Virus record (IMG/VR): IMGVR_UViG_2751185958_000017
Length of the DNA: 23,829 nucleotides
DNA from: a virus
Lineage: Duplodnaviria > Heunggongvirae > Uroviricota > Caudoviricetes
Strand: one strand, 5' to 3'
Positions 1-17,502 of the stretch are shown here, in pieces. How positions within the stretch are numbered: position 1 is the first letter of the stretch; every line of letters begins with the position of its first letter. The translations under genes and the position numbers were made by a program. The notes under the pieces are model-generated. The model saw only the letters and a program-made list of their open reading frames with translations, was not told the origin of the DNA and did not search any database.

Positions 1-285
1 TTCATTTTCCATCGTTTTCTTGCCGAGCAGGCGCTGGAGTTCTTTAATCTGCTTCATGGCGGCAGCAAGTTCAGAGGCAGGAACAACCTGTTCTCCGGCG
101 GCCACAGCAGTAAGACTTCCTTCCTGGTATTGCTTACGCCAGAGAAATAACTGGCTGGCTGCTACACCATGTTGCCGGGCAACGAGGGAGACCGTCATCC
201 CCGGTTCAAAGCTCTGCTGAACAATTGCGATCTTTTCCTGTGTGGTACGCCGTCTGCGTTTCTCCGGCCCTAAGACATCAATCAT
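1..285 (-). CDS. insC: IS2 transposase OrfA (InsC), N-terminal part; 3' end outside window
   Basis: Minus-strand ATG at 283-285; translation [95 protein letters not shown] matches my memory of IS2 InsC. Antisense to the 20..220 ORF in the track. Confidence 0.8.
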
Positions 286-376
286 CTGTACTCCAATGAC
301 TAGTCTAAAAACTAGTATTAAGACTATCACTTATTTAAGTGATACTGGTTGTCTGGAGATTCAGGGGGCCAGTCTA
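1..376 (-). mobile_element. IS2 insertion sequence (IS3 family), left-end portion; terminal inverted repeat ends at 376 and the rest of the element lies beyond the window start
   Basis: Reverse complement of 283-376 reads TAGACTGGCCCCCTGAATCTCCAGACAACC...ACTAGTCATTGGAGTACAGATG, which I recognise as the IS2 left terminus running into orfA. Recognition is from memory, not a search. Confidence 0.85.
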
Positions 377-587
377 GTGCCGATACAAATCATCCTATAT
401 TCTAAGGAGTTTTAAGTTACTCAGCCTGCCAATTACTGGGGCATTTAATTTGTATGATCTGTATCAAAGCTGGGATATAAGTTAAGTGAAGTATATTAGG
501 CACGAATTACCAGCGTCTGCTCTTGGCACAGAGCGGACTGTCAGATTAGACTTTACTCTGTGCTATAGGTATGTCAGCTCATACAAC

Positions 588-1115
588 TTATTGCGGCATT
601 TCCGGCCATTCAGGATTTGCAGGATCCACACGACTGACCAGAACGCTGTAGCGTTCCCATGCTTCCAGTCGGCTGCGCTCCTCATCTGTTGCCATATTCA
701 GCCTGACAGCGCGCTCCAGCGGCAAAATCACGGATTCAGCTTCGGAAAGTAAAGTTGCCTTTTGTGATTCTGCCAGTTGCTGCTGTTCGTCTGCCGTATA
801 AATCCGCTTAATCACGGCACCATCCTTAAACATCCATTTACCTGAGTCATCAGCACGTCGGTTGGCGGTAATATCAGGAACCTCGACAACGCTAAAACCT
901 TCAGGGTTAAGCGTTGAAGCATCTCTGGTGATGCCGACAATTATATTATTCTCGTCGTAAACAATCTTTATCGTGTCTTCCTGAAAATTACTTACTTCCT
1001 CATACCAGTTTTTTCCGTCTTCAGACCATAACCAGATAACATCAAAATTTTTTGTCAGTTGATATTGGGCAACAGTTTTGGGATTACCCGCAGTAATATT
1101 TTTTAAATGCTGCAT
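588..1115 (-). CDS. G: Tail fibre assembly protein (P2 G homolog, Tfa)
   Basis: 175-aa ORF immediately downstream of and nearly abutting the tail fibre gene; size and position match P2 G. Confidence 0.8.
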
Positions 1116-1118
1116 AAA

Positions 1119-3209
1119 TTACACCTGTGCGACGTTATACCATGTGCCATTAATGTATTTTTGTATTGGTCTGAATACTGCCGGATCATCGCCATCAACT
1201 TCGCCGACAATGCCAAGCCCTGTAATTACATGGCCTGATTTCTCATACATCACGCCTTTTTGCATGGTCTGAACAACACGCGTACCCAGGCGAACATCTT
1301 TCACATAGCGGGAATCAAAATTTCCGTAATCTGATGGGTTAACACGTCCAGTAACACTCAGGCCATGCCCCATTGACACTCCGCCATTGGCGTTATTGAT
1401 AGTCAGCGGTCTTAAACCGTTCCATGTTCCAAATTTATCGCCAGAGGCCGTCAGCATTAAATATGTGCTGCCGCCATCATTCCTGATAAAGAATCCATAA
1501 TTGCCATAAGCAATGCGCAGACCATTAGCACTGAGCGATGTAATTTCACCTCTTGAACGAAGACCATAAGCAGAGCTGAGTGATAATTCTTCCTGAGCAT
1601 CAGTATTACCTGTCGCCCAGCGAATTACCCCGCCCTGTACTGTTTCATGCCAGATAGTGTCTCCTTCTCCACCACGAAACTTTCTGAGATATTTTTTGCC
1701 GCCTCTGGTGCCGGAACATAAGGCCGTAGACATATAGGCATTCTGGCTTCCACTATCCTGATTAATAGTTCCAGACATAGAATCGCCGTAACGGTTCCAG
1801 TCACGCCGCCAGCCAGGAGCATAGTTGTCCCCGTGGTTAATATAAGTAAATTGCGCGCTTGTAGCGCCCCCACCGCTTGATGTTGTTGGTGTGGTAATAC
1901 GAATAGTCATTGCAGACTTTATGCCCATTACCTCAATAACAGCGCCAGCAAGATGAATATTGCCACAGCCAGTATCCGTAATGATTTTGTTATTTGCATA
2001 TGACCAGGAGCCTTTGCACATCCAGTACGGATGATTAAATGCACCACGGGAATCCAGCCATTCAATAAACTGAGCGGTTGTCCAGTTTCCGGCTTCAGTG
2101 CTCAAAGCGCCGCTATAAGCACGACAGGCACCGATATTTTTCGTGAAGGTATCCTTTCCCGGAATATCCGCACCGTTCTGATCTTTCTGAAGACGTTTTT
2201 CAGCATTGTCATAGGCAGACTTCACCGCCTTTGGCGTTGCAGCCTGCGTTTCAGAATCACTGTTGGTGGCGCTACTGAGCTGGACAAGACCTTTTCGCGC
2301 CGTGGTGGCATCCTGTGCAGTGTATTTCCCGTTAGCAAGGTCATATGCTGTCTTAACCGCCTTTGGCGTTGCCGCAAGCGTTTCAGAATCGCTGTTGGTG
2401 GCGCTACTGAGCTGAACAAGGCCTTTTCGCGCTGTTGTGGCATCCTGTGCAGTGTATTTCCCGTTAGCAAGGTCATATGCTGCCTTTACCGCTTTCGGCG
2501 TTGCGGCGAGCGTTTCAGACGTGCTGTTAGTCGCACTACTGAGCTGAACAAGGCCTTTTCGCGCGGTGGTAGCGTCCTGTGCGGTATATTTCCCGTTAGC
2601 AAGGTCATATGCGGCCTTAACCGCTTTCGGAGTTGCAGCCAGTGTTTCAGACGTGCTGTTGGTCGCACTGCTTAACTGAGTAAAACCTTTTGCGGTCAGC
2701 GAGGCGTCAGGGTGACGTCGTGACTGTTCATGTTCTGCAATTTTGTCATCAACGTAATCCTGCGTTGCCATCACCGTTGTGGTGTCAATGGTCAGCTCCA
2801 CTGAGGCCACACTGCTGACGATGATGACCATGCGGCAGGTCTGCGAACGCCCTGAGCCTTCGGCAAGGGCTGGCTTATAACTTTCGGCCATGTTCGCCAC
2901 GGCAATTAGCGTTCCCGCATCATCGTACAGGCCAAGTTCACGCATCCAGAAACCGCCCACCTCCGGCGGAATAACCAGCTCTGCGATAATATAATTACTG
3001 TTTCGTTTGTCCTGGCTGATTTTGTTCAGCGCATGTCGCCAGACTTCATGGATAAGCCCGGTCTGTCCGGCATCCGGGACAGGCAATTTACCACCGCCAT
3101 CCCCGACGGCCATCGTGGTAATGTTGACCTTCCGCCCTCCCGGTGCGGTTGCCGCTGCCAGCTTTGCTGCACCGGCAGTGGTGATAACGGTTTTGAATTT
3201 TGTGCTCAT
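1119..3209 (-). CDS. H: Tail fibre protein (P2 H homolog) with internal 44-aa tandem repeats and a lower-GC C-terminal receptor-binding region
   Basis: 696-aa ORF; N-terminus MSTKFKTVITTAGAAKLAAATAPGGRKVNITTMAVGDGGGKLP is typical of P2-type H; followed by about 3.6 copies of a 44-aa repeat; located between I and G. Confidence 0.88.
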   Translation of the reverse strand: MSTKFKTVITTAGAAKLAAATAPGGRKVNITTMAVGDGGGKLPVPDAGQTGLIHEVWRHALNKISQDKRNSNYIIAELVIPPEVGGFWMRELGLYDDAGTLIAVANMAESYKPALAEGSGRSQTCRMVIIVSSVASVELTIDTTTVMATQDYVDDKIAEHEQSRRHPDASLTAKGFTQLSSATNSTSETLAATPKAVKAAYDLANGKYTAQDATTARKGLVQLSSATNSTSETLAATPKAVKAAYDLANGKYTAQDATTARKGLVQLSSATNSDSETLAATPKAVKTAYDLANGKYTAQDATTARKGLVQLSSATNSDSETQAATPKAVKSAYDNAEKRLQKDQNGADIPGKDTFTKNIGACRAYSGALSTEAGNWTTAQFIEWLDSRGAFNHPYWMCKGSWSYANNKIITDTGCGNIHLAGAVIEVMGIKSAMTIRITTPTTSSGGGATSAQFTYINHGDNYAPGWRRDWNRYGDSMSGTINQDSGSQNAYMSTALCSGTRGGKKYLRKFRGGEGDTIWHETVQGGVIRWATGNTDAQEELSLSSAYGLRSRGEITSLSANGLRIAYGNYGFFIRNDGGSTYLMLTASGDKFGTWNGLRPLTINNANGGVSMGHGLSVTGRVNPSDYGNFDSRYVKDVRLGTRVVQTMQKGVMYEKSGHVITGLGIVGEVDGDDPAVFRPIQKYINGTWYNVAQV
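2205..2681. repeat. About 3.6 tandem copies of a 132-bp unit inside the tail fibre gene, encoding 44-aa repeats (phage tail fibre repeat type)
   Basis: Directly visible near-identical 132-bp units (e.g. ...gtatttcccgttagcaaggtcatatgc...gctgttggtggcgctactgagctg...); protein repeat QLSSATNS(T/D)SETLAATPKAVKAAYDLANGKYTAQDATTARKGLV occurs 3 full times plus a partial fourth copy. Boundaries approximate. Confidence 0.85.
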
Positions 3210-3219
3210 TATTCCTCAC

Positions 3220-3750
3220 TTATCCGGGGTAAACCGTAATTACATCGCCGTCGTAAGCCACACCACCGGCGAACAGGTAGCCGGGAATATCCCGGGTAAT
3301 GTTCAGGCCAATAAGATGACGGCTTGCAGGTTTGGCATCAGCAATAAGCCGTTCCATTTCCTGATACATTGCCTCTGTGATGCCGCTTTCCAGTACGCCA
3401 ATATCAAGCCGGAAGGTGCCTGGCGGGTCACTGGTTTCCCACCACTCCGTCACGTTGATGAGATAGCCCAGCGGCTCCACCACACGCCGGATTGCACCTA
3501 TAGTGCCTTTATGACAGTGGATGAAATAGGCATCGCGAATAACGGCGCGTTTGGTCGCTTCCGGCCACTTTTCATCCCGCCTGTCGACCGAAAACGCCCA
3601 CGCCAGCCACGGCAGCAGATTTGCCGGACAGGTATCCGGGTTCCACAGATCACGAATACTGACCGGCGTTTTTTCAATTTCCGCACAGGCTTTTGCGGCG
3701 GCGACTTCAAGCGGTGATGAGCCGGTCGGCAGCAGGCGCGAATCACTCAT
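3220..3750 (-). CDS. I: Baseplate assembly protein I (P2 I homolog)
   Basis: 176-aa ORF, same length as P2 I; sits between J and H; overlaps the J stop by 8 nt. Confidence 0.85.
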   Translation of the reverse strand: MSDSRLLPTGSSPLEVAAAKACAEIEKTPVSIRDLWNPDTCPANLLPWLAWAFSVDRRDEKWPEATKRAVIRDAYFIHCHKGTIGAIRRVVEPLGYLINVTEWWETSDPPGTFRLDIGVLESGITEAMYQEMERLIADAKPASRHLIGLNITRDIPGYLFAGGVAYDGDVITVYPG

Positions 3751-4651
3751 CCGAGCCTCCGGTCACGACGCGGTATTCGGTACAGAAAGACGCCTGCGTA
3801 CTGTTGAGCACAATGTCGGCCAGTGGTGCAGCCAGTTCGACACGCTGCACGCCTTCCACATGCAAAGCGGCATAAATGGCAGACAGACGGATGTCGCGCC
3901 CCAGCCGGTGCTGTGCCGTGATGTACGCTTCCAGTTTTTTCACGGCGGCAGCGCGGATGGGTTCGCTTTCGGGACCAGGGTAAAGGTAAAGCGTGGCGTT
4001 TATCTGGTATTCAACGATGGCGGCAGACTGCACGGTCACGCGGTCGGCTACCGGCCTGACGTCCTCGCCATTAAGGGCGTTACGCACCACCGCCAGCAGG
4101 TCTTCGGATGCGACACCGTTATTTTCACGTGACAGCACAGAGATGGTGACGCAGGCCGGAGAAGGACTGGTGACAGAGATATCTGCGACACGCCCGTCGG
4201 CACTTCGACCATGATACTGATAGGCCCCCACCGACCCGGCGACGCTTAAACCTTCAAACGCCTGCTGAATACGCAGACGATAATCGGTGTCAGATTCCAT
4301 CTCGGCCGGTGTCGGCGGGAGGGTCGAATCATCTGCCGGGGTGATAATCAGGCGCGCGGTGTTGTAATTGGCACCAATCACATCAAGGTCATTACCGGCA
4401 GCACAGGCCAGCATCACCGCCCGTGCGGCCTCATTCACACGCTGACGCCAGATAAGCTCACGATAAGCATTTTCCTCCAGCAGTTTGACGAGAGGCTCAG
4501 ATTCAAGCGTCAGGGTACGGGCGACCGCCTCCTGCTGGTCTTCCGGGTAAAGGGAAATCAGTGTCGCCTTGCGTTCGGCAAGAATGGTTTCAAAGTCCAG
4601 CTCCTCGACCACATCCGGTGCGGGTAGCTGGTTCAGGTCGATAATCGGCAT
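3743..4651 (-). CDS. J: Baseplate assembly protein J (P2 J homolog; T4 gp6-like wedge protein)
   Basis: 302-aa ORF, same length as P2 J; position W-J-I. Confidence 0.88.
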   Translation of the reverse strand: MPIIDLNQLPAPDVVEELDFETILAERKATLISLYPEDQQEAVARTLTLESEPLVKLLEENAYRELIWRQRVNEAARAVMLACAAGNDLDVIGANYNTARLIITPADDSTLPPTPAEMESDTDYRLRIQQAFEGLSVAGSVGAYQYHGRSADGRVADISVTSPSPACVTISVLSRENNGVASEDLLAVVRNALNGEDVRPVADRVTVQSAAIVEYQINATLYLYPGPESEPIRAAAVKKLEAYITAQHRLGRDIRLSAIYAALHVEGVQRVELAAPLADIVLNSTQASFCTEYRVVTGGSDE

Positions 4652-4655
4652 GGTT

Positions 4656-5003
4656 TCAACTCACAGGGATGGTTAACGAAAGTGGCTGGCCGGTGTCGTT
4701 GTGCTGACCGGTTAACGTGACCGTCATTCGCCCGTCAAAACTGCGCGCCGTGGTGACGGATGACAGGGTGACGCGGGGTTCCCATTTCAGCACTGCCATG
4801 TAACAGGCGACCTTAATCTGCAACTCAAGCGCCGGGGTCTGCGGCTGGTCAATCATTGATGCCAGCAACGAGCCGTAATCACGACGCATCACCCGTGAGC
4901 CGACCGGTGTGCGCAGGATATCGCCGATACTCTGGCTGATATGCTCAAGGTCAGTGACCGTCAGGCCATCACTGCGATTCATTCCGAGATAACGCGCTGT
5001 CAT
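4656..5003 (-). CDS. W: Baseplate assembly protein W (P2 W homolog; gp25-like)
   Basis: 115-aa ORF, same length as P2 W; start overlaps the V stop. Confidence 0.85.
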   Translation of the reverse strand: MTARYLGMNRSDGLTVTDLEHISQSIGDILRTPVGSRVMRRDYGSLLASMIDQPQTPALELQIKVACYMAVLKWEPRVTLSSVTTARSFDGRMTVTLTGQHNDTGQPLSLTIPVS

Positions 5004-5629
5004 AGAGGACTCCCGGTTGTGCCGCCGCTGTCGCCGGGGTGTTTATGGGTATGCAGTACCTTCCCGTTTGATGAAAGTTCACCGCCGGTGTGTTCAATGT
5101 TGCCGCGCATCGTCCCGCCCTTCTGCACTTCCAGCGTGCCGGTAATCAGCTTGTTGGTGCAGACCACCTCCGGTGTGTCCAGGGTGACGCGGGTTGATGC
5201 TTTCACCATGACCACCGGCACCGTGGCAGTAACAGAATCAGAAGCCGTCACGCTGGCCGTTTTAATTCCGCTTACCGTGAGTGCACTGGTTTCAGGTTCA
5301 TACTCAATCACCGCCCCGTCAGGGAAACGGATATGCAGGGCATCCGCCGACGCCGACGGCGCGGGGTTATCGCCGGAATAAATCCCCGGCAGAACGAACG
5401 CCGTGTCGAGTTCACCGCCCACGGCCAGAATCAGCACCTGTTCCCCCACGGAAGGTGCCCACCATGTGCGCGAACGACCGGCGCGATGGGTCAGCCACTG
5501 AAGCCAGTCGGTGCACATGCCGCCGGTCTGCACACGGCAGCGACCGGCATTAAGGTCGGTTTCGACGATAATGCCAGTGCGAATCATATTGCGTATAAAG
5601 CGAAGAATTTCATTGTATTGTGCATTCAT
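5000..5629 (-). CDS. V: Baseplate spike/assembly protein V (P2 V homolog)
   Basis: The track ORF 5000..5707 has an internal Met giving MNAQYNEILRFIRNMIRTGIIVETDLNAGRCRVQTGGM..., which matches the P2 V N-terminus as I remember it; start set at the ATG at 5627-5629 rather than the upstream in-frame Met. Confidence 0.82.
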   Translation of the reverse strand: MNAQYNEILRFIRNMIRTGIIVETDLNAGRCRVQTGGMCTDWLQWLTHRAGRSRTWWAPSVGEQVLILAVGGELDTAFVLPGIYSGDNPAPSASADALHIRFPDGAVIEYEPETSALTVSGIKTASVTASDSVTATVPVVMVKASTRVTLDTPEVVCTNKLITGTLEVQKGGTMRGNIEHTGGELSSNGKVLHTHKHPGDSGGTTGSPL

Positions 5630-5647
5630 TCGATAATAATGATTCTG

Positions 5648-5653
5648 TACAAT
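5648..5653 (+). promoter_or_regulatory. Candidate -10 hexamer (TACAAT) for the cargo gene in the V/cargo divergent intergenic region
   Basis: TACAAT about 60 nt upstream of the proposed cargo start; no good -35 found; sequence-only guess. Confidence 0.2.
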
Positions 5654-5715
5654 CTCGAAGTAAATCACACCACGATTTCTGGTGCACAGAACAACAAGGG
5701 ACAACAAAATCCATT

Positions 5716-6852
5716 ATGAGTACTTACTTTTTCTCGTCAGAAACAATGAAAGAATTGTTCAAAGATTATCTGGTCTTTTTGAACACGCTGACTCCCGGCA
5801 CAAACTTTGAATCAAGCAGAAACAAAATAATTGCTCAAGCAATAAACTTCATTTCCGAAAACCCTGAAGATTGGGACAAAAAATCCCAGTACAACATTGC
5901 TATGATTGGCGACACCTTTAAAAGTTTCTTAAGAGAAAAGGGAGAAGATAACAACAGCATCAACCTTATATTCACTTGCTTTTTTAGATTTATCATTGAA
6001 CCAAGCATTCTCTCTCCGGAAATAGAGTCTCACTTTTCACCACTAAGAACCATCAAGGATTTTGCTCTGTATAACTATAATGAATTCGATGAGCGGAGCA
6101 GAGCACAGATAGACTTTTCTCTTAGAGAACTGCCATTAGCAATGGTTAAAGAAGTTTTAAGCTCCAGCAATGTTGACACATATAAAAAATACATTGATAG
6201 TTTAAACGAAGGGCGTCAATTTTTCGAAAAGTGCGACTCCTTCTTAAAGGAGCAACATGCCAAAATAGAGTCAATCAAAGAGTCATTAAAAGGGTATGAG
6301 GTCGCATTTAATTTTGTTGGATTGTTTGAAGGCTTTAATTCACTTGGCAAAAAGAAAGAAAGTGAAATCATGCTATCAAGAATAATTCTTATCATCTTGG
6401 CTATAATCATTCCCTCCCCGCTGATATACTATGGAATGCATAAATTACCAGCTCTCGAAACGACAAATGCTGCCACATATTTTATGTCAGCACTACCTTT
6501 TGCATCAGTTACATTGATTTTCATGTATTACTTTAGAGTTGTACTGCTAAATCATATATCGTTACGAACTCAGATTATGCAAATAGAACTCAGAAAGAGC
6601 CTTTGTCAGTTCATTCAGAGTTATAGCGACTATTCCTCAGAGATAAGGAAAAACAATCCGGAAGCGCTTTCAAAATTCGAAGACGTAGTATTTTCAAACA
6701 TCATGCTATCCGATGATAAGATACCATCTACATTTGATGGCATTGAGCAAATAGCATCGTTAATCAATTCATTAAAAATGGAAAGTAATGATAAAAGGCC
6801 AATAACTGGCCTTTTATTTATTAACATGAAAATTCAAAATAAATTATGCTAA
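5716..6852 (+). CDS. AT-rich cargo gene at the P2 orf30 position: 378-aa predicted membrane protein with two central transmembrane helices; function unknown, candidate superinfection-exclusion or abortive-infection protein
   Basis: Long ORF on the strand opposite the flanking late genes; much lower GC than its neighbours; start chosen at the ATG at 5716 (MSTYFFSSETMKELF...) with a weak aaggga Shine-Dalgarno 14 nt upstream, because the track start at 5620 overlaps the V start; hydrophobic stretches IMLSRIILIILAIIIPSPLIYYGM and YFMSALPFASVTLIFMYYFRVVLL. Confidence 0.7.
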   Translation: MSTYFFSSETMKELFKDYLVFLNTLTPGTNFESSRNKIIAQAINFISENPEDWDKKSQYNIAMIGDTFKSFLREKGEDNNSINLIFTCFFRFIIEPSILSPEIESHFSPLRTIKDFALYNYNEFDERSRAQIDFSLRELPLAMVKEVLSSSNVDTYKKYIDSLNEGRQFFEKCDSFLKEQHAKIESIKESLKGYEVAFNFVGLFEGFNSLGKKKESEIMLSRIILIILAIIIPSPLIYYGMHKLPALETTNAATYFMSALPFASVTLIFMYYFRVVLLNHISLRTQIMQIELRKSLCQFIQSYSDYSSEIRKNNPEALSKFEDVVFSNIMLSDDKIPSTFDGIEQIASLINSLKMESNDKRPITGLLFINMKIQNKLC

Positions 6853-6890
6853 TCAATTGATTTCTATCTTATATTCTCAGATGATTAAAG

Positions 6891-7343
6891 CTAACGATTC
6901 AGGTGAGCCAGGATAATCTCTTCAATCATCTGCACATCCTCACCGGTAAAGCCGAGCAGAGGACGCGCCGGATATTCAATTTTCTTACCGTCTTTCCGGG
7001 TTTCTTCCGACAGACCGAACTGATGCACACTGGCTATTTTCGGTGACTTCCCGCCGTAAAACTCCATTGATGCCTGTTCAGGGCTGGCGCGGATATGCAA
7101 AAAACGACTGGTGATAAGTTTCGCAAACATTTTTCGCTTAACGCGACCGGTCTTTTTTCTGGCGCTCTGCTGCTGGCGTGGTGCGTAGGGTGTGCCGTCC
7201 GGGGCTTTCTGTGCCATCACCCGACGCTGCTGACTCTGACGCAGACGTTTCGCCAGTTCGGCGCTCAGTCGCCGACGCCCTGACGGTGACAGCGACTCAA
7301 TCAGTCCGGTCAGCCTGTCTTCAAAACGCTTAAACTCATTCAT
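6891..7343 (-). CDS. S: Tail completion protein S (P2 S homolog)
   Basis: 150-aa ORF, same length as P2 S; position R-S. Confidence 0.85.
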   Translation of the reverse strand: MNEFKRFEDRLTGLIESLSPSGRRRLSAELAKRLRQSQQRRVMAQKAPDGTPYAPRQQQSARKKTGRVKRKMFAKLITSRFLHIRASPEQASMEFYGGKSPKIASVHQFGLSEETRKDGKKIEYPARPLLGFTGEDVQMIEEIILAHLNR

Positions 7344-7791
7344 CCCACTTACTCACCAGTTCGCCATTGATATAAAGCTCCATCGGGCGGGTGACCGGCT
7401 CCGGCGGCGGAGGTTCCGGGATATTCTTCACATGCAGCGCGCCGTCCACCTCACTGACCAGCGTGCGCTCGGTCAGCATCAGGCTGATGCTGATATCAAA
7501 GCTGCTGTCATTGTTGATGTCTGCATAAAACGTGAAGCCCTTTTTCGTGGTCATGATGTCGGGCTGATTTTCCCGCAGCCACGCCAGCACCGGCACGATG
7601 AGCAGGTCAAAATCACCGGTAAAGTCGGTCACAATGACATTGAGCGTGTAACGCTTTTCGAACGACAGCGACGTCGCCAGTGTGGAGGCAATACTCCCGT
7701 TATCCACGAATATCCGCAGCATATCGGGGTTAGTTTTCAGCACCGTGACGGCATCAGTCAGCGCCCTGCGCAGGCTGTCGGGTTTGAGCAT
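7336..7791 (-). CDS. R: Tail completion protein R (P2 R homolog)
   Basis: 151-aa ORF between the lysis genes and S, overlapping the S start. Confidence 0.85.
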   Translation of the reverse strand: MLKPDSLRRALTDAVTVLKTNPDMLRIFVDNGSIASTLATSLSFEKRYTLNVIVTDFTGDFDLLIVPVLAWLRENQPDIMTTKKGFTFYADINNDSSFDISISLMLTERTLVSEVDGALHVKNIPEPPPPEPVTRPMELYINGELVSKWDE

Positions 7792-8044
7792 CGTTTTCGT
7801 CCTGACAGTGTTTAATCATTTTTACCTGGCTGGCACAGCGTGCCAGCGCGTTCTCAAGCTGCCGGATATCGGCACTTAAATCGCCGTTCTTCTGCGGGTC
7901 ACTGCCCGGCATCGGGCAAAGGCTCACTTTCGGGCAGGCGTTGGCGACAATCACTGGCGTCAGTGCAGGCCGGACGCTGGTGCAACCGGCGCACAGCATC
8001 AGGCAGGTCAGCGCCATACCAGCGGCGGAAATCCTCGTTTTCAT
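7754..8044 (-). CDS. lysC: LysC, outer-membrane lipoprotein spanin (Rz1-like), embedded out of frame in lysB and R
   Basis: Internal start of ORF 7754..8161 at the ATG at 8042-8044 with a gagg Shine-Dalgarno; MKTRISAAGMALTCLMLCAGC has a signal peptide and lipobox (LCAGC); proline-rich mature region; overlaps lysB in another frame. Confidence 0.7.
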   Translation of the reverse strand: MKTRISAAGMALTCLMLCAGCTSVRPALTPVIVANACPKVSLCPMPGSDPQKNGDLSADIRQLENALARCASQVKMIKHCQDENDAQTRQPAQGAD

Positions 8045-8324
8045 TAAGTAACCTCGTGATGGTTTTCTCGCGCAGTGCTTCACGCTTCGCGGCGTTCTCC
8101 AGTTCCTGACGCAGTGCCACCTGCGCCAGCTCGTTTTTGTCTGCCCTGGTGAGTGCAACATGAAGCTGATTTTTCAGCATGGTGATGGTCGTCTGCTGCC
8201 CGCTGGCGACGCTGTTCGCCCTGTCCAGTGAGGTGCGCAGGCTGGCATTTTCATGCTTCACCAGAAACAGCCCCGGCACCGCCAGTGATAACAACACAAC
8301 CAGCACAATCATCAGCTTTGACAT
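7899..8324 (-). CDS. lysB: LysB, inner-membrane spanin (Rz-like)
   Basis: 141-aa ORF, same length as P2 LysB; N-terminal TM helix MSKLMIVLVVLLSLAVPGLFLV followed by a charged helical region. Confidence 0.82.
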   Translation of the reverse strand: MSKLMIVLVVLLSLAVPGLFLVKHENASLRTSLDRANSVASGQQTTITMLKNQLHVALTRADKNELAQVALRQELENAAKREALREKTITRLLNENEDFRRWYGADLPDAVRRLHQRPACTDASDCRQRLPESEPLPDAGQ

Positions 8325-8737
8325 GGTTCCCGCCCCTCAAAACGCTGACGGCAGGCCGTACGTATCAGCCGGAAGAACACCGACGCCACAAGATAAATCA
8401 GCGCGGTAAAAATCCACCCGGCAGCGACCAGCGCGATAAACGTCGCCACCATCACCACCAGAGCCGCCGCCCGTCTGCGCCACGGCACCGGCTGCAAAAA
8501 CAGCGACGTGACAATCTTCACGGCCAGCGATTCCGGCGGCAGCTCCCGCCCGTAGCGTTCCAGCACATACTCAGTGGCATACACCCCGACACCACCGGTA
8601 ACCACACAGATAACCGTCGCCAGAATCGCCCAGGCGGCGACAAAATTGACGGCCACGCTCTGCGGGTAAATCAGGGACAGTGCCAGCATCAGCGCCAGCG
8701 ACACGTTCAGCATCTGTGAAAGGGATAATTTCTTCAT
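8312..8737 (-). CDS. lysA: LysA, lysis-timing membrane protein (P2 LysA homolog)
   Basis: 141-aa multi-TM protein between K and lysB. Confidence 0.78.
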   Translation of the reverse strand: MKKLSLSQMLNVSLALMLALSLIYPQSVAVNFVAAWAILATVICVVTGGVGVYATEYVLERYGRELPPESLAVKIVTSLFLQPVPWRRRAAALVVMVATFIALVAAGWIFTALIYLVASVFFRLIRTACRQRFEGREPCQS

Positions 8738-8751
8738 GGTGTTTACTCCGT

Positions 8752-9249
8752 TTAAGCCGGTACGCCGCCAGCGGTACGCCAGACGGTGACCAGTTTTTCC
8801 AGTGAATGCTCACGCTGACCGTAACCGGCACCCGGCAGGGACGCCCAGATATTGCGACAGCGTGAAATGGCGCGCTCAATACGTCCCGCCCGGATGTCAT
8901 CCAGCGCACCGCGTTCGCGGATCAACTGAATGGCGAGTCTGTCCTGTGACAACGGACTGAAATCCGGCAGGGCAAGCTGTTTGCGGTAATGCGGCCAGAA
9001 CAGGTAAAGCTGCTGATAGCGACCGGAGGCCGTGGATTTTTCACCGCGACGGTTAAACACCTTCGCCGGTCGGCCATGTGCGAACGGGTGGTCACTGTAG
9101 TCGGTGAAAATTTCCGGCTTTCCGTCCAGTCCGGTGACTATCACGTCATAGCCCCGGTTTTTCGTCAGCGGATGGTTCGCCGTCCCTTCGGACACGGCCA
9201 GCATGTCGAGAAAGGCGGCGATATTCTGATGCGTGTTAATAACCGGCAT
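8752..9249 (-). CDS. K: Endolysin (P2 K homolog, lysozyme)
   Basis: 165-aa ORF, same length as P2 K, directly downstream of the holin. Confidence 0.88.
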   Translation of the reverse strand: MPVINTHQNIAAFLDMLAVSEGTANHPLTKNRGYDVIVTGLDGKPEIFTDYSDHPFAHGRPAKVFNRRGEKSTASGRYQQLYLFWPHYRKQLALPDFSPLSQDRLAIQLIRERGALDDIRAGRIERAISRCRNIWASLPGAGYGQREHSLEKLVTVWRTAGGVPA

Positions 9250-9530
9250 TACGGTTTCCCCCTGCCCTTAAAGCGGCGCTGAATGGCAATCTCAATCACC
9301 TGATAACCGGCGATACCCAGCATGGAGCCGATGCCGCACACCGCAGGCAATGACAGGTCAGGAAACTGCACCAGAACAACACCGGCAACCATCGAGACAA
9401 AACCACCGAGCAACATGCGCCCGATAAACAGACGCGGGGTGATGGGTTCACCACCGGCAAGCACCTTGCCGACAACAATCAGCACCCCAATCATGAAAAG
9501 CGACAGGACGCTTTTTTCTTCTGCTGTCAT
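9249..9530 (-). CDS. Y: Holin (P2 Y homolog)
   Basis: 93-aa ORF, same length as P2 Y, with hydrophobic segments (LSLFMIGVLIVVGKVLAGG...). Confidence 0.85.
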   Translation of the reverse strand: MTAEEKSVLSLFMIGVLIVVGKVLAGGEPITPRLFIGRMLLGGFVSMVAGVVLVQFPDLSLPAVCGIGSMLGIAGYQVIEIAIQRRFKGRGKP

Positions 9531-9533
9531 GCG

Positions 9534-9737
9534 TTACTCCCACAGATTGACAGTTTCAGCCACGGGCGCGGTCTGAACGTCGGGCAGTTCGACGGCGGTG
9601 CCGTGCGGCAGCACCGCGCCCAGTTCAGCCAGTCCCGGATTTGCGGCGAGCACGGTCTCAACCACGCCCTCAGTGCGCCCGTAATACCGGACACAAATGG
9701 CGTCGAGCGTGTCGCCCTGTAGCGCAAAGGTCTTCAT
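9534..9737 (-). CDS. X: Tail protein X (P2 X homolog)
   Basis: Internal start of ORF 9534..9806 at MKTFALQGDTLDAICVRYYGRTEG... (67 aa, the P2 X length); start ATG overlaps the L stop (TGATG). Confidence 0.8.
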   Translation of the reverse strand: MKTFALQGDTLDAICVRYYGRTEGVVETVLAANPGLAELGAVLPHGTAVELPDVQTAPVAETVNLWE

Positions 9738-10246
9738 CAGATTTGACTCACGATGCAGCGCGGCTTGTCCTGGATGCGCGCCACCGCCCAGCGCATATCC
9801 CGCCACAGCTCATCAATGGTGCTGTCAATGCTGTCAGCCTTCTTGTCGCCTTTCGCACTGGCATCCACGCCGCGATAACGCTCATACAGCGACGCGGTCG
9901 CCATCGCACACACGGCGCGCTCGTAGTAAAAAACCCTGATGCTTTCACCGTCGATGTCGTCCGCCGGGACGTCCGCCAGACGCGTAAAACCGGCGGCAAT
10001 TTTCTGTTCGCGGTACTCGTACAGCTCCGCATTTGTTTCCGCCATGCCTGACTTGATGGCCTCACGCAGACGGGCGGGGGCGACAGTCTGCTCAAGGCGC
10101 ATACGTTCCCGGACGCGCTTCGGGTCGATATCGGGAAAAAAGAACGTGTTTTTAATCACCGGCTCGTCGCCTGCCGGTTGCGGGATGACCACCGTACCCT
10201 CACCGGACACGGGAGCCTCCTTTCGCGGAATAATCAGCGTCATCAT
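9737..10246 (-). CDS. L: Capsid completion protein L (P2 L homolog)
   Basis: Start set at the MMTLIIPRKEAPVSGEG... Met pair (169 aa, the P2 L length) rather than the upstream in-frame Met of the track ORF. Confidence 0.82.
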   Translation of the reverse strand: MMTLIIPRKEAPVSGEGTVVIPQPAGDEPVIKNTFFFPDIDPKRVRERMRLEQTVAPARLREAIKSGMAETNAELYEYREQKIAAGFTRLADVPADDIDGESIRVFYYERAVCAMATASLYERYRGVDASAKGDKKADSIDSTIDELWRDMRWAVARIQDKPRCIVSQI

Positions 10247-10345
10247 GACTACCTCTGAAAAGTCGGGCGGTGGACGCCGGTGCAGTGTCAGATGATTCAC
10301 CCTCACTGACCGGCGTGCCGCCCTGGCGCGGGGCGCATTCGGTTG

Positions 10346-11095
10346 TTAACTGGCTTTCTTTTTCGGGCGTCCACGTTTTGCCGGTGTCACGCTCCGGGTC
10401 TTACGCGGGGTACGGGTGGCCGCTTTTGGCTGCGGCTGCGGCTCCGGCTTCGGTTTCAGCTCCCGCTCCAGTCGTTCAATCTCTTTTTTGACGCCTGCCT
10501 GACAGTCGAGCTGTGTCGCACGTTGCAGGTGCGCCAGCGCACCGGCGGCATCACCACCGTCACGCAGAAACAGACCGGTGATTTTGTGCAGCTTTGCGCG
10601 CACTTCATCAGGCATGTCAGCAGCGGCAGTCAGTTCAAGGGTCTCCGTCAGCAGGCGGGTATCCACAGACTCACCGGCAGCGTGGGCACGCATGGCCGCA
10701 AGCGCGACCTCCTCGGTGAACATGTACGGCGGGGTGCGGCGGTGTTTACCCGGCATGGTCAGACCGTACTTCAGGGCATAACGGGCAATCTCCAGCGCAC
10801 CGGCAATATCGCCGGTATCCAGACGCCACAGCATGACCGTCATCAGAATGTCATCCTGTGCACCTTTGCCCTGCTCCAGCACGCCGTTCACCCACGGCAA
10901 CCAGAACGGCAGCAGTTCGCGTTTTTTCGCGGCCTTCAGCTCTTTTGAATAAATCGCTTTCAGTGTGCGCTGGTCTGCGGCGAGCTTAACCAGCATCTGC
11001 TCATAGACAGTTGCATGTCGCAGCGGGGCGGCTTCCCGCTGCGCGGTCATCGCTGCCGAGACCCGCATCATGTGGCGCTGTGCGGGACTCGTCAT
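10346..11095 (-). CDS. M: Terminase small (endonuclease) subunit (P2 M homolog)
   Basis: 249-aa ORF downstream of N; basic, proline-rich C-terminal tail (KPKPEPQPQPKAATRTPRKTRSVTPAKRGRPKKKAS). Confidence 0.85.
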   Translation of the reverse strand: MTSPAQRHMMRVSAAMTAQREAAPLRHATVYEQMLVKLAADQRTLKAIYSKELKAAKKRELLPFWLPWVNGVLEQGKGAQDDILMTVMLWRLDTGDIAGALEIARYALKYGLTMPGKHRRTPPYMFTEEVALAAMRAHAAGESVDTRLLTETLELTAAADMPDEVRAKLHKITGLFLRDGGDAAGALAHLQRATQLDCQAGVKKEIERLERELKPKPEPQPQPKAATRTPRKTRSVTPAKRGRPKKKAS

Positions 11096-11098
11096 CGG

Positions 11099-12172
11099 TT
11101 ACGCTCCCGGCTCTGCGGTCGCTTTAGCCGGTGTGGAGAAGTCACCGACCTTGATTTTTTCCACCAGACAACCGGCGGCGTAGTCTTCCACCACGTAATC
11201 AATGTTCATTGACTCGTAGTTCTCCACGCGGTCGAGTTTCGGGTTTTCCACAATCACGCGGCGATGGCTGTCATCCATGTAGTAGATGGACAGGTTTTCC
11301 AGCTTCGTGATGAGCATCGCATCCGCCGGGAAGTACGGGACGCGCACTGCCGGCAGGTTACCGATGCGTTTCTGGCTGATGATGACGTCAGCGGCCAGCA
11401 TCTCGCTGTTGTCCTGCTCCTTGTTGACGATGGGGAAATACTTGTCCGCCAGTAGCTGACGCCCCACAATCACCACAAGGTCAGGGTCTTCCTGATACCA
11501 CGGCTCAATCAGGTTGTTGGTCGCATCCATCACCAGTGCATCGAGGCTGGCATAATCACCGCCCTTACCCACGCGGATGACCTCAGAGGTCGTGTGACCT
11601 TCCTCGTCAGTAACCTTGCTCATCACGCGCGCCGGGGCTTCATTGCGGTATTTCTGCAGCCAGCCGACCGCCACATCCTGCAGCATCTGGTTACTGCTGC
11701 GGTCAGAGGTTTCGGCACGCCTCACGCCGTTAAAACCGGCCATGATTAAATCAAGGGACTGGCGTTTGATAATGGCGTTACGGACACGGAGCTGGAAATC
11801 CTGATAACGCGCCCACAGGTCCAGCGTTTTGTAGCGGATATAAAAATCGAAGTTAATCTGGTCGCATTCGTACTTGTTTGACGCCAGCTTCGAGAAGTCC
11901 TTCGGCTGACGCTCGGTGCCACCGGCGGTGTCGGTGGTGCTGGCGATGGAGCCGGTGACACCAATACCAATTTTTTCCCCTTTCATTTCGCTGACCGGCA
12001 CAATGTTGATGCGGGTCAGAAAGTCAGAGGACTCCTGCATGGTGTTCATCAGGGTCTGGGTGACCGACGGTTCAACGGTGAATTTTTTCGACACATCACC
12101 GGCGTCGATGCCGTTCAGTTCGGCAACACGGGACAGGTAGGCATTAAATTTAAAGCGGGTTTCCTGGCGCAT
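11099..12172 (-). CDS. N: Major capsid protein (P2 N homolog)
   Basis: 357-aa ORF, same length as P2 N; position O-N-M. Confidence 0.9.
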   Translation of the reverse strand: MRQETRFKFNAYLSRVAELNGIDAGDVSKKFTVEPSVTQTLMNTMQESSDFLTRINIVPVSEMKGEKIGIGVTGSIASTTDTAGGTERQPKDFSKLASNKYECDQINFDFYIRYKTLDLWARYQDFQLRVRNAIIKRQSLDLIMAGFNGVRRAETSDRSSNQMLQDVAVGWLQKYRNEAPARVMSKVTDEEGHTTSEVIRVGKGGDYASLDALVMDATNNLIEPWYQEDPDLVVIVGRQLLADKYFPIVNKEQDNSEMLAADVIISQKRIGNLPAVRVPYFPADAMLITKLENLSIYYMDDSHRRVIVENPKLDRVENYESMNIDYVVEDYAAGCLVEKIKVGDFSTPAKATAEPGA

Positions 12173-12230
12173 AGTTTTTCCTGAAATTAAGGGTTAATCG
12201 TGAAGGTTTTCCCGGACTGACTGACGCCGG

Positions 12231-13085
12231 TCAGCAGTTCGTCATCAGGGCGTCACCGCCACCACCGGTGGCCTTGCTGCGGCGCTGCTGGGTCAGACTT
12301 TCGGTGTTGTCGAGACTGTTTTTCAGGCGGCTGAATGCCTGACTGGTTTCATCCGCCCTGTCAGTCACCTCCTGCTTAAGTGCGGAAAAGGCGGTTTCCA
12401 CCTCAGCGAGGCGCTGCTCAGTGGCGCTCAGTTTTTCCTGCACATGTTCAGCAACAGCGGTCACCGCTTCATGCACGTCATTCAGACGGGCGTCATCGCT
12501 GGCCTGTTTGCGGCCAAAAATGGATTTCACCTTTTCGGTCAGGGCGGTGAACACGGTTTCAGGCAGGTCTTCAAATTCCAGCTCAACGGGCGTTGCCACT
12601 GAAATCAGGTTTTCAGGGCTTAATTTGAAGCGGTTCAGGGGGTTGTGTTTTGCCGTGCGGCAGAATTCCAGGTATTCCGTGCCGAGGCTTGCCGGGTCAT
12701 CGGTGACGGCCAGCCCCACCAGATAACATTTGCCGGTGTTGGCAAAGTTCGGCTGAATTTCCATTGAGGTGTAGACCTTCTGCGCGGCCTTGTTCATCGC
12801 GATAAGGTCATCGGTCGGGGTGATTTTCGCAAACAGCGCCCATTTGCCTTTCAGCGCCGAATCGTCATCAATCTTTTCGGCCTTCAGTTCGACCACATCG
12901 CCATAACGTTTAAAAATACCGTCAGGCAGGATGCCGCGCAGATGTTCCAGGTTAATGCGGCAACCGTAGACACGCGGGTCAAAGGTTTCGGCCATTTCCT
13001 GAATATCCTGCGCACTGATGACACGCCCGTCACAGGTGTCACCCTCAACGCCGATACGAAAGAATTTTGAGACTTTTTTTGCCAT
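12231..13085 (-). CDS. O: Capsid scaffolding protein (P2 O homolog)
   Basis: Start set at MAKKVSKFFRIGVEGDT... (ATG at 13083-13085), giving 284 aa, the P2 O length; divergent from P. Confidence 0.85.
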   Translation of the reverse strand: MAKKVSKFFRIGVEGDTCDGRVISAQDIQEMAETFDPRVYGCRINLEHLRGILPDGIFKRYGDVVELKAEKIDDDSALKGKWALFAKITPTDDLIAMNKAAQKVYTSMEIQPNFANTGKCYLVGLAVTDDPASLGTEYLEFCRTAKHNPLNRFKLSPENLISVATPVELEFEDLPETVFTALTEKVKSIFGRKQASDDARLNDVHEAVTAVAEHVQEKLSATEQRLAEVETAFSALKQEVTDRADETSQAFSRLKNSLDNTESLTQQRRSKATGGGGDALMTNC

Positions 13086-13258
13086 TGTCAGGAGTCCTGA
13101 ATAGTGATTAGAGGAGTCACATGTCGGCATCAGTTTCCCGACGATGCGCATCCTCCGCCATCAGTCCCGGATGGCTTATCACTGACACAACAGCACCTTA
13201 GCGAATCGCGGGGCGCGACTCAGTAGCCTTGCCGTGTATTCATCACGGCGAGGTATTC
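13086..13258. promoter_or_regulatory. Divergent intergenic region between O and P, expected to carry the two Ogr-dependent late promoters
   Basis: Position only: in P2 the O and P operons are driven by divergent late promoters in this gap. I could not identify the activator-binding dyad with confidence. Confidence 0.4.
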
Positions 13259-15031
13259 ATGACCATCACCACAGACACCACTCTTTTACACGACCCGCGT
13301 CGTCAGGCGGCGCTGCTGTACTGGCAGGGATTTTCCGTGCCGCAGATTGCCGCCATGTTGCAGATGAAACGCCCGACGGTGCAGAGCTGGAAGCAGCGCG
13401 ACGGCTGGGACAGCGTTGCCCCCATCAGCCGTGTCGAAATGAGTCTGGAAGCGCGGCTGACCCAGCTCATCATCAAACCGCAGAAAACCGGCGGTGACTT
13501 CAAGGAAATTGACCTGCTCGGACGCCAGATTGAACGACTGGCACGGGTCAACCGTTACAGTCAGACCGGCAACGAGGCAGACCTTAATCCGAACGTCGCT
13601 AACCGCAACAAAGGCGGGCGTCGCAAACCGAAAAAGAATTTTTTCAGTGACGAGGCCATCGAAAAGCTGGAGCAGATTTTCTTTGAGCAGTCTTTCGACT
13701 ATCAGTTGCACTGGTATCGCGCCGGGCTTGAGCACCGCATCCGCGATATCCTGAAATCCCGCCAGATTGGCGCGACGTTTTATTTTTCCCGCGAGGCGCT
13801 GCTGCGCGCCCTGAAAACCGGCCATAACCAGATTTTTCTGTCGGCCAGTAAAACGCAGGCGTATGTGTTCCGTGAATACATCATCGCCTTTGCCCGTCTG
13901 GTTGACGTTGACCTTACCGGTGACCCGATTGTCCTGGGCAATAACGGCGCAAAACTGATTTTTCTCGGCACCAACTCCAACACCGCACAGAGCCATAACG
14001 GCGACCTGTACGTCGATGAGATTTTCTGGATCCCGAATTTTCAGGTACTGCGTAAGGTGGCATCAGGTATGGCCTCACAGAGCCACCTGCGCTCGACCTA
14101 TTTCTCCACCCCGTCCACGCTGGCGCACGACGCCTACCCGTTCTGGTCGGGTGAACTGTTCAACCGGGGACGCGCCAGCGCCGCCGAACGCGTGGAAATC
14201 GACGTCAGTCATAACGCCCTTGCCGGAGGTCTTCTCTGTGCGGACGGCCAGTGGCGGCAGATTGTCACCATTGAGGACGCCCTGAAAGGCGGCTGCACGC
14301 TGTTCGACATTGAGCAGCTCAAACGCGAAAACAGCGCCGACGATTTTAAAAACCTGTTCATGTGTGAATTTGTTGACGACAAGGCATCGGTGTTCCCGTT
14401 CGAGGAGCTGCAACGCTGCATGGTCGACACGCTGGAAGAATGGGAAGACTATGCACCCTTTGCCGCCAATCCGTTCGGCTCCCGCCCGGTATGGATTGGT
14501 TACGACCCGTCACACCGTGGCGACAGTGCCGGATGCGTGGTGCTGGCACCGCCGGTGGTGGCCGGTGGCAAATTCAGAATACTTGAGCGTCACCAGTGGA
14601 AAGGCATGGACTTTGCCACCCAGGCTGAATCCATCCGCAAACTCACCGAAAAATATAACGTCGAATACATCGGTATTGATGCCACCGGCCTCGGTGTCGG
14701 CGTGTTCCAGCTCGTGCGCTCGTTCTATCCTGCCGCGCGCGATATCCGCTACACACCGGAAATGAAAACCGCAATGGTGCTCAAGGCAAAAGACGTTATC
14801 CGCCGTGGCTGTCTGGAATATGACGTCAGCGCCACCGACATCACCAGCTCGTTTATGGCTATCCGCAAGACCATGACCAGCAGCGGACGCATCGCCACCT
14901 ATGAGGCCAGCCGCAGCGAGGAAGCCAGCCACGCCGACCTCGCCTGGGCGACCATGCACGCCCTGTTAAATGAGCCACTCACCGCCGGTATCAGCACCCC
15001 GCTGACATCCACCATTCTGGAGTTTTACTGA
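13259..15031 (+). CDS. P: Terminase large (ATPase) subunit (P2 P homolog)
   Basis: Start at MTITTDTTLLHDPRRQAALLYWQGFSVPQIAAM... with a gaggt Shine-Dalgarno; 590 aa, the P2 P length; stop overlaps the Q start (TGATG). Confidence 0.9.
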   Translation: MTITTDTTLLHDPRRQAALLYWQGFSVPQIAAMLQMKRPTVQSWKQRDGWDSVAPISRVEMSLEARLTQLIIKPQKTGGDFKEIDLLGRQIERLARVNRYSQTGNEADLNPNVANRNKGGRRKPKKNFFSDEAIEKLEQIFFEQSFDYQLHWYRAGLEHRIRDILKSRQIGATFYFSREALLRALKTGHNQIFLSASKTQAYVFREYIIAFARLVDVDLTGDPIVLGNNGAKLIFLGTNSNTAQSHNGDLYVDEIFWIPNFQVLRKVASGMASQSHLRSTYFSTPSTLAHDAYPFWSGELFNRGRASAAERVEIDVSHNALAGGLLCADGQWRQIVTIEDALKGGCTLFDIEQLKRENSADDFKNLFMCEFVDDKASVFPFEELQRCMVDTLEEWEDYAPFAANPFGSRPVWIGYDPSHRGDSAGCVVLAPPVVAGGKFRILERHQWKGMDFATQAESIRKLTEKYNVEYIGIDATGLGVGVFQLVRSFYPAARDIRYTPEMKTAMVLKAKDVIRRGCLEYDVSATDITSSFMAIRKTMTSSGRIATYEASRSEEASHADLAWATMHALLNEPLTAGISTPLTSTILEFY

Positions 15032-16065
15032 TGAGCAAGAAAAAAGGGAAAACACCGCAACCTGCGGCAAAAAAAATGACCGCCAGCGCCCCGAAAATGG
15101 AGGCATTCACCTTTGGTGAGCCGGTGCCGGTACTCGACCGCCGTGACATTCTGGATTACGTCGAGTGCATCAGTAACGGCAGATGGTATGAGCCACCGGT
15201 CAGCTTTACCGGTCTGGCAAAAAGTCTGCGTGCTGCCGTGCATCACAGCTCACCGATTTACGTTAAACGCAATATTCTGGCCTCGACATTTATCCCGCAT
15301 CCGTGGCTTTCCCAGCAGGATTTCAGCCGCTTTGTGCTGGATTTTCTGGTGTTCGGTAATGCGTTTCTGGAAAAGCGATACAGCACCACCGGTAAGGTCA
15401 TCAGACTGGAAACCTCACCGGCAAAATATACCCGCCGTGGTGTGGAGGAGGATGTTTACTGGTGGGTACCGTCCTTCAACGAGCCGACACCTTTCACGCC
15501 CGGCTCCGTATTTCACCTGCTGGAGCCCGATATTAATCAGGAGCTGTACGGCCTGCCGGAATATCTCAGCGCCCTTAACTCTGCCTGGCTGAATGAATCG
15601 GCCACGCTGTTCCGCCGCAAGTATTACGAAAACGGCGCACATGCCGGATACATCATGTACGTCACCGATGCCGTGCAGGATCGCAACGATATCGAAATGC
15701 TCCGCGAAAACATGGTGAAGTCGAAAGGCCGCAACAACTTTAAAAACCTGTTTCTCTATGCCCCACAGGGGAAAGCCGACGGCATTAAAATTATCCCGCT
15801 CAGTGAAGTGGCAACGAAGGACGATTTTTTTAATATCAAAAAAGCCAGCGCCGCTGACCTGCTGGACGCGCACCGCATCCCCTTTCAGTTGATGGGCGGC
15901 AAGCCGGAGAACGTCGGGTCGCTGGGCGATATTGAGAAAGTGGCAAAGGTCTTTGTCCGCAATGAGCTTATCCCGCTACAGGACAGGATCCGCGAGATAA
16001 ACGGCTGGCTCGGCCAGGAAGTCATCCGCTTTAAAAACTACTCACTGGACACTGACAACAGCTGA
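15031..16065 (+). CDS. Q: Portal (capsid vertex) protein (P2 Q homolog)
   Basis: 344-aa ORF, same length as P2 Q, adjacent to cos as in P2. Confidence 0.9.
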   Translation: MSKKKGKTPQPAAKKMTASAPKMEAFTFGEPVPVLDRRDILDYVECISNGRWYEPPVSFTGLAKSLRAAVHHSSPIYVKRNILASTFIPHPWLSQQDFSRFVLDFLVFGNAFLEKRYSTTGKVIRLETSPAKYTRRGVEEDVYWWVPSFNEPTPFTPGSVFHLLEPDINQELYGLPEYLSALNSAWLNESATLFRRKYYENGAHAGYIMYVTDAVQDRNDIEMLRENMVKSKGRNNFKNLFLYAPQGKADGIKIIPLSEVATKDDFFNIKKASAADLLDAHRIPFQLMGGKPENVGSLGDIEKVAKVFVRNELIPLQDRIREINGWLGQEVIRFKNYSLDTDNS

Positions 16066-17399: not shown

Positions 17400-17502
17400 A
17401 CTCAGCTCCGTTATGGCTATAATCGCATAAATAATAAGCACTTATATTGCAATCATCTAGTTAAATACACAATATTTATGACTCCGAAATTTCATTAAAT
17501 CA

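Follow-up and report, generated by a model that had tools for sequence, protein, structure and literature searches.

An IS2 element in the Z/fun locus of a P2-like prophage, most likely a simple intergenic insertion

The window analyzed here, a stretch of 23,829 nucleotides from a member of the Caudoviricetes (IMG/VR record IMGVR_UViG_2751185958_000017), begins inside a copy of the insertion sequence IS2, which lies in the G-FI variable locus of a P2-like prophage and thus at the Z/fun cargo position named in the original prediction. Very probably, this arrangement goes back to a single simple insertion of IS2 into intergenic DNA of the Z/fun locus, with a 5-bp target duplication and intact neighbours. 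IS2, a member of the IS3 family that transposes by copy-out/paste-in, would have entered only once the AT-rich spacer between tail fibre assembly gene G and a BetU-like transporter gene of the BCCT family, at a point 211 bp after the stop codon of G and 115 bp before the start codon of the transporter gene. It would have duplicated the target GGCAC (5 bp) and would now be fixed in a Shigella boydii-type lineage. In the reading direction of G, the proposed order is G, backbone hairpin and hotspot repeat, 138 bp of cassette DNA, IRL, insA and insB, IRR, GGCAC, 110 bp, the BCCT gene, the DUF2254 gene, a 269-aa ORF, pF, and FI. No cargo would have been lost and no gene split, and the sheath operon would retain its own late promoter. 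The element, the variable locus and the prophage type are all already known, and the insertion is a textbook one. It would represent routine IS expansion in a Shigella-type genome at a prophage spot that tolerates insertions and would matter little, its practical use being that of a lineage marker and of a reason for the short-read contig breaks at this position.

Positions 1–376 of the window (− strand) are the left end of IS2 (IS2 positions 1–376), and the rest of the element lies beyond the window edge. The annotated IS2A of E. coli K-12 MG1655 (1331 bp), read from position 376 to 1, aligned to these bases with 99.2% identity, three mismatches and no gaps, which bears out the predicted IS2 terminus at 376. 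Homology to IS2A stops exactly at this position, and the terminal repeat was found at the boundary (IRL tip TAGACTGGCCCC). The IRL tip reads TAGACTGG on the − strand, and window base 376 corresponds to IS2 base 1. In genomes with an empty site, identity to the window begins at 376/377. The 5′ part of insA (insC), codons 1–95, extends from 285 to 1 on the − strand, where it is cut by the window edge, and its translation is identical to residues 1–95 of K-12 InsC1. The window thus shows 376 of the 1331 bp of an element that shares its IRL tip and InsA N-terminus with IS2A of K-12. A complete 1331-bp IS2 in another prophage (L007, UYIT01000006.1) is 100% identical to window 1–376 over its first 376 bp and carries ORFs with HTH_Tnp_1 and rve matches; the window itself reaches InsA codon 95. 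In two draft contigs (L014 and L017), gene calling placed the equivalent insA ORF at the contig end, as an HTH_Tnp_1 fragment of 96 aa. An exact-match scan of the GTDB representative genomes with a 32-mer across the IS2 junction yielded no matches, and a look-up of the mechanically called 57-aa ORF that spans the junction (242–415, + strand) found none on record.

Gene G (588–1115, − strand) encodes a protein of 175 aa that matches Pfam Caudo_TAP (E = 9e-35). Its DNA is 90–96% identical to G of L-413C, Wphi and other Peduovirus genomes, and relatives annotate it as tail fiber assembly protein. From 5707 down to 588 on the − strand, V, W, J, I, H, and G follow each other as the baseplate and tail-fibre genes of P2 in P2 order. 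The DNA between the G stop and IS2 (377–587) comprises 211 bp with a GC content of 40.3%, which falls to 37.0% in 377–514 and compares with 51.2% in the whole window; the anticipated gap of about 210 bp of partly AT-rich non-coding DNA is therefore real. As also predicted, no ORF of at least 60 aa is contained in this stretch. One mechanically called ORF of 88 aa (486–752, + strand) begins there and exits antisense into G, and no gene was called at its position in any relative compared. The stretch consists of two parts. Positions 515–587 (− strand) are conserved P2 backbone directly downstream of G, as seen in an alignment with P2, vB_EcoM-12474II, and the GPEC128 prophage, and the homology among these four sequences ends at ~515, beyond which all of them diverge. 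Positions 377–514 (− strand) are AT-rich cassette DNA and make up the distal portion of the DNA upstream of the BCCT/BetU-like gene, from which they are now separated by IS2. They match the G-BCCT spacer of prophages without IS2 at 100% identity and belong to a 3.7-kb segment common to prophage and plasmids (10575–14274 in the empty-site prophage L003).

Two variable loci have been described in P2-like phages (PMC9122126). The annotated order in P2 (NC_001895) is G - fun(Z) - FI - FII - E - T - U - D, in agreement with the gene order from which the original prediction started. The occupied locus corresponds to the G-FI locus in that G, with V-W-J-I-H upstream, stands on one side, FI follows the cargo in the relatives and in the sister genome described below, and conserved backbone with inverted repeats encloses the variable DNA on both sides. 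Four complete E. coli chromosome records (S10, Res13-Lact-ER01-35, and d1-58, the last with two records) match window 376–1200 with 100% identity and are without IS2. In these records and in several genomes found via the G protein, the uninterrupted prophages continue after G with a 322-bp spacer, a 665-aa BCCT gene, a 425-aa DUF2254 gene, a divergent 269-aa ORF, and FI, FII, E, T, and U. The empty site reads ...ATCGGCACTCATTCC... in E. coli S10 and in L003, and in the alignment the IS2 break in the spacer falls between ...ATCGGCAC and TCATTCC.... The locus agrees with Z/fun of P2 in position, in the backbone that follows G and in the type of flanking inverted repeat, whereas its cargo consists of the BCCT gene, the DUF2254 gene and the 269-aa ORF (4.7 kb) plus IS2 instead of fun(Z).

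The original prediction had proposed to look for the other end of IS2 and a 5-bp target duplication and to compare the site with an uninterrupted P2-like genome. Both the other end and the duplication (GGCAC) are present in the chromosome of Shigella boydii 600657 (CP049281.1, here also L013), and the E. coli empty sites offer the same cargo with the same spacing for comparison. CP049281.1 was the only complete genome returned by the look-up of the I-protein variant; the strain belongs to clade 2, and its genome was closed with PacBio and Illumina data (PMC7545283). It shows no mismatches to window 1–13737 and has the same IS2 junction. Its IS2 copy occupies L013:13375–14701 (1327 bp) and has, like the usual IS2, both ends and a 5-bp target duplication. 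The junctions read ...ATCGGCAC before IS2 and GGCACTCATTCC... after it, with GGCAC on both sides. The IRR of this copy ends GGGGCAAATCCA, and a simple insertion is expected to join ...GGGGCAAATCCA to GGCACTCATTCCACC..., followed by the BCCT gene. The target is a GTCCC-type pentamer, GTGCC (GGCAC on the − strand), at window 377–381, which is single in the empty sites and duplicated in L013. Beyond IS2, 115 bp lead to the BCCT start codon, and the lengths and spacing of the BCCT gene (665 aa), the DUF2254 gene (425 aa), the 269-aa ORF, and the start of FI are as in the empty-site E. coli prophages; FI in CP049281.1 was seen over its first 1090 bp. The possibility that the tail genes simply continue beyond a complete IS2 with a target duplication had been set against the original prediction. 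Such a simple intergenic insertion with its duplication is what the sister genome contains, but 4.7 kb of cargo and not the tail genes lie directly beyond IS2. The far side of IS2 was seen in this sister genome and not in the draft-only sublineage of the window, whose strain probably has the same far side. The S. boydii 600657 copy of IS2 carries a 4-bp frameshift deletion in insA, equivalent to window 158–161. This deletion is absent from the copy in the window, which is probably the ancestral and possibly still active form.

Several consequences that the original prediction had considered were not borne out by this comparison. A cargo gene disrupted or deleted by the insertion was one of them, and in the sister genome the cargo is intact, with no gene split and none deleted. 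The absence of a split gene follows from the intergenic position of IS2, 115 bp before the BCCT start codon. Each P2 late operon has its own Ogr-dependent promoter. In NC_001895, an activator-binding site and a transcription start for pF are annotated just upstream of FI, and in L013 the pF region, 4.7 kb beyond IS2, is largely conserved, the activator-site stretch itself being divergent. Since FI has its own pF promoter, an insertion 4.7 kb upstream should not uncouple the sheath/tube operon (FI to D), contrary to what had been suggested. The effect of the insertion is most likely none or mild; the transporter gene might at most be subject to some polarity or be regulated differently, and any change in expression would probably be small.

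The predicted 8-bp inverted repeat between IS2 and G exists, although not at 531–570 with a 24-nt loop as first given; its arms are GCACAGAG at 526–533 and CTCTGTGC at 556–563, separated by a 22-nt loop. About 7% of the shuffles of the 211 bp hold an equally good 8-bp inverted repeat, and the RNA fold of the stretch is unremarkable (z = −1.1). The case for a genuine repeat is based on its conservation in P2 and other P2-like phages and not on shuffle statistics, as the 8-bp arms are invariant in the four P2-like sequences aligned (the window, P2, vB_EcoM-12474II, and the GPEC128 prophage). A role as terminator was rejected, because the search for T-run terminators gave no match and the fold does not stand out; the annotated V-operon terminator of P2 is located elsewhere, 365 bp after G (NC_001895). 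Lying within the P2 backbone, the 8-bp repeat shares bases with the longer, known repeat at the border of the Z/fun variable locus. Window 515–550 (− strand) is the G-proximal arm of this inverted repeat of ~36 nt, which was found by a repeat search in L003, where the arms lie at 10566–10601 and 15259–15294 and the inverted partner is just upstream of FI. The arm contains, at 515–538, a 24-nt imperfect palindrome (GTCCGCTCTGTGCCAAGAGCAGAC on the − strand); copies of this motif were likewise seen in P2, 12474II, and GPEC128, and each end of the betU module on plasmids carries one. With the consensus GTCyGCTyTGTGCCAAnAGCrGAC, this palindrome occurs at every cassette boundary of the G-FI variable locus (window 515–538; L003:10578–10601, 14251–14274 and 15259–15282; L023/L024:2344–2367 and 6017–6040). 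The segment shared by prophage and plasmids, L003:10575–14274, spans the distance from one copy of the motif to the next. This motif-to-motif homology of the betU and DUF2254 module suggests that cassettes may be exchanged at the 24-nt motifs between P2-like prophages and plasmids. A passage in PMC8987985 that cites Nilsson et al. (2004) describes fun as flanked by inverted repeats permitting exchange.

More relevant biologically than the insertion itself is the cargo beside it, a BetU-like osmoprotectant transporter gene that lies outside the window and is shared motif to motif with many plasmids, a pattern already described for this locus. The protein encoded next to IS2 belongs to the BCCT family. 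Its scores exceed the curated cut-offs of NCBIfam NF007399 (BetT subfamily; 751.8 bits, cut-off 695) and TIGR00842 (543.6, cut-off 407.6), and it scores below the cut-off of the glycine-betaine equivalog NF047988 (595.6 versus 650). The BCCT and DUF2254 pair is 99.9–100% identical to a module on >1400 plasmid records. In L013, the cargo genes are 100% identical to the plasmid copies and thus not decayed. Holt et al. (PMC3139670) reported that two genes of Tn6062, one of which is betU, confer growth in 0.8 M NaCl. One of their cloning primers finds an approximate match (17/22 bases) that begins 74 bp before the BCCT start codon. Based on this approximate match and on the 100% DNA identity to the plasmid pair, the prophage genes may be the same BCCT and DUF2254 pair as in Tn6062 and the plasmid betU module (carried by many plasmids, among them the IncHI1 PST6 plasmids of S. 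Typhi), and we refer to the transporter as “BetU-like”. The genetic context differs: here the pair is prophage cargo beside a single IS2, whereas Tn6062 is an IS1-bounded composite transposon. The BCCT gene, the DUF2254 gene, the 269-aa ORF and a 357-aa ORF at the orf30 position had no match in PADLOC, and the idea that the cargo is a defence system was rejected with these zero matches. In two records (CP026872.1 and CP026832.1), the same prophage is without IS2 at this site and has its BCCT and DUF2254 genes split over several ORFs, whereas both are intact in the IS2-bearing S. boydii.

A functionally important insertion is rather unlikely. IS2 could change the expression of the BetU-like transporter by severing its upstream DNA or late read-through, or by transcription directed outward from IRR. 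Classical IS2 gene turn-on and the IS2-ampC hybrid promoter are precedents. The conserved 275-bp upstream region of the BCCT gene is split by IS2 into 160 bp and 115 bp, the transposase genes read toward the transporter, and the 115 bp remaining beside the BCCT gene yielded no sigma-70-like site in a consensus scan. Moreover, the empty site has no terminator-like hairpin between G and the transporter gene, so that late transcripts may normally read through. However, the consensus scan also detected no sigma-70-like hexamer pair at the IRR/flank junction or elsewhere in L013:13230–14900, and a hybrid promoter at this junction was rejected as a candidate on that basis. In addition, the primer site of Holt et al. 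lies within the retained 115 bp, and their clone conferred osmotolerance (PMC3139670). The proximal 115-bp region may thus be sufficient for expression, with read-through from the vector as another possibility. It is unlikely that IS2 departs from neutrality, in that by splitting the 275-bp region and reading toward the BetU-like gene it rewires osmoprotectant uptake in the S. boydii clade and could be the start of an IS2-bounded composite transposon mobilising the Z/fun cassette. The idea of a composite transposon derives from another strain that has a same-orientation IS2 at the other end of the cargo.

The simple insertion is also consistent with the way in which assemblies of this lineage are fragmented. 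Draft contig MDGW01000600.1 shares 17,791 bp with the window at 100% identity and extends past window base 1 by only 2 nt. In a base-by-base comparison, window base 3579, in gene I, was common to one draft contig only. The lineage-marking variant of the I protein occurs in 227 collection blocks, and in 169 of these the contigs measure 20–50 kb. All lineage contigs examined (L012, L014, and L015, as well as L017 from a look-up of the R variant) end at or inside IS2. Two independent draft contigs (L014 and L017) contain the same junction, and L012 and L015 break at it. The R-variant look-up, aimed at the far side of IS2, returned draft contigs only, all ending at or inside IS2. These breaks are as expected if IS2 is fixed in the lineage and, as a multicopy element, disrupts short-read assemblies; the window shows the IRL side only because short-read contigs break inside the repeated IS2. 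The R variant itself is a 12-bp in-frame deletion near 7546 in tail completion gene R (7336–7791, − strand), which leaves 151 instead of 155 aa and could affect tail assembly. It is found in 61 collection blocks, all draft assemblies, is absent from all other relatives compared and marks the sublineage of the window. A further 1-bp deletion in the A-run at 6773–6778 is shared with one draft contig (L015) and alters the C-terminus of the 357-aa ORF (5746–6852, + strand), which lies between V and S at the orf30 position of P2 and has no Pfam or PADLOC match.

The termination of the window and of all contigs of its sublineage inside IS2 would also fit a different history, in which the strain of the window lost its cargo and/or tail genes, or had them moved elsewhere, through recombination between two directly oriented IS2 copies (one at this site and one upstream of FI, as in L007) or through an IS2-mediated adjacent deletion or inversion, so that IS2 marks the endpoint of a deletion or rearrangement. 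Shigella genomes are IS-rich and rearranged. The prophage L007 carries a complete same-orientation IS2 at the FI-proximal end of the same cargo, so raw material for such a deletion exists in the population; joining its IRL to window position 377 would give exactly the window, minus 4.6 kb of cargo. Nevertheless, we regard this history, which includes the deletion endpoint raised in the original prediction, as very unlikely. A deletion derivative would be without target duplication, whereas CP049281.1 has the same junction, is free of mismatches for 13.7 kb, and shows the matching 5-bp duplication along with FI and the complete cargo, and L007 is not the parent, as it is without the lineage-specific base at 3579. 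The IS2-adjacent deletion of the 4.6-kb cargo was rejected for the lineage once CP049281.1 had revealed the duplication and the full cargo. The flanks of IS2 in L007 (15365–15370 and 16700–16705) show a 4-bp duplication (CCCG) and an extra T by IRL, not a clean 5-bp duplication. Finally, an assembly artefact at a chimeric contig end could be suspected because the window starts within a multicopy repeat at the end of a draft contig, but the identical junction in the PacBio- and Illumina-closed chromosome CP049281.1 and in the drafts L014 and L017 effectively refutes it.

Other IS2-family insertions in the G-FI interval of P2-like prophages are independent events. An IS2-like element in E. coli GPEC128-620 has the same orientation and lies 540 bp past G, with a different cargo and insertion point. 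The complete IS2 of L007, just upstream of FI, and an IS2 adjoining G in E. coli E275a likewise occupy different insertion points. The other P2 variable locus, between A and Q, encodes in the window a DUF4238 protein (16470–17441, − strand; PADLOC DUF4238-Pers, E = 1.8e-219), and a DUF4238 single-gene system from the A-Q hotspot has been reported to protect against T7 (PMC9122126). Gene H contains, at 2208–2694, tandem internal repeats of ~132 bp with 87% identity, and four stretches matched Phage_fiber_2 (Pfam).
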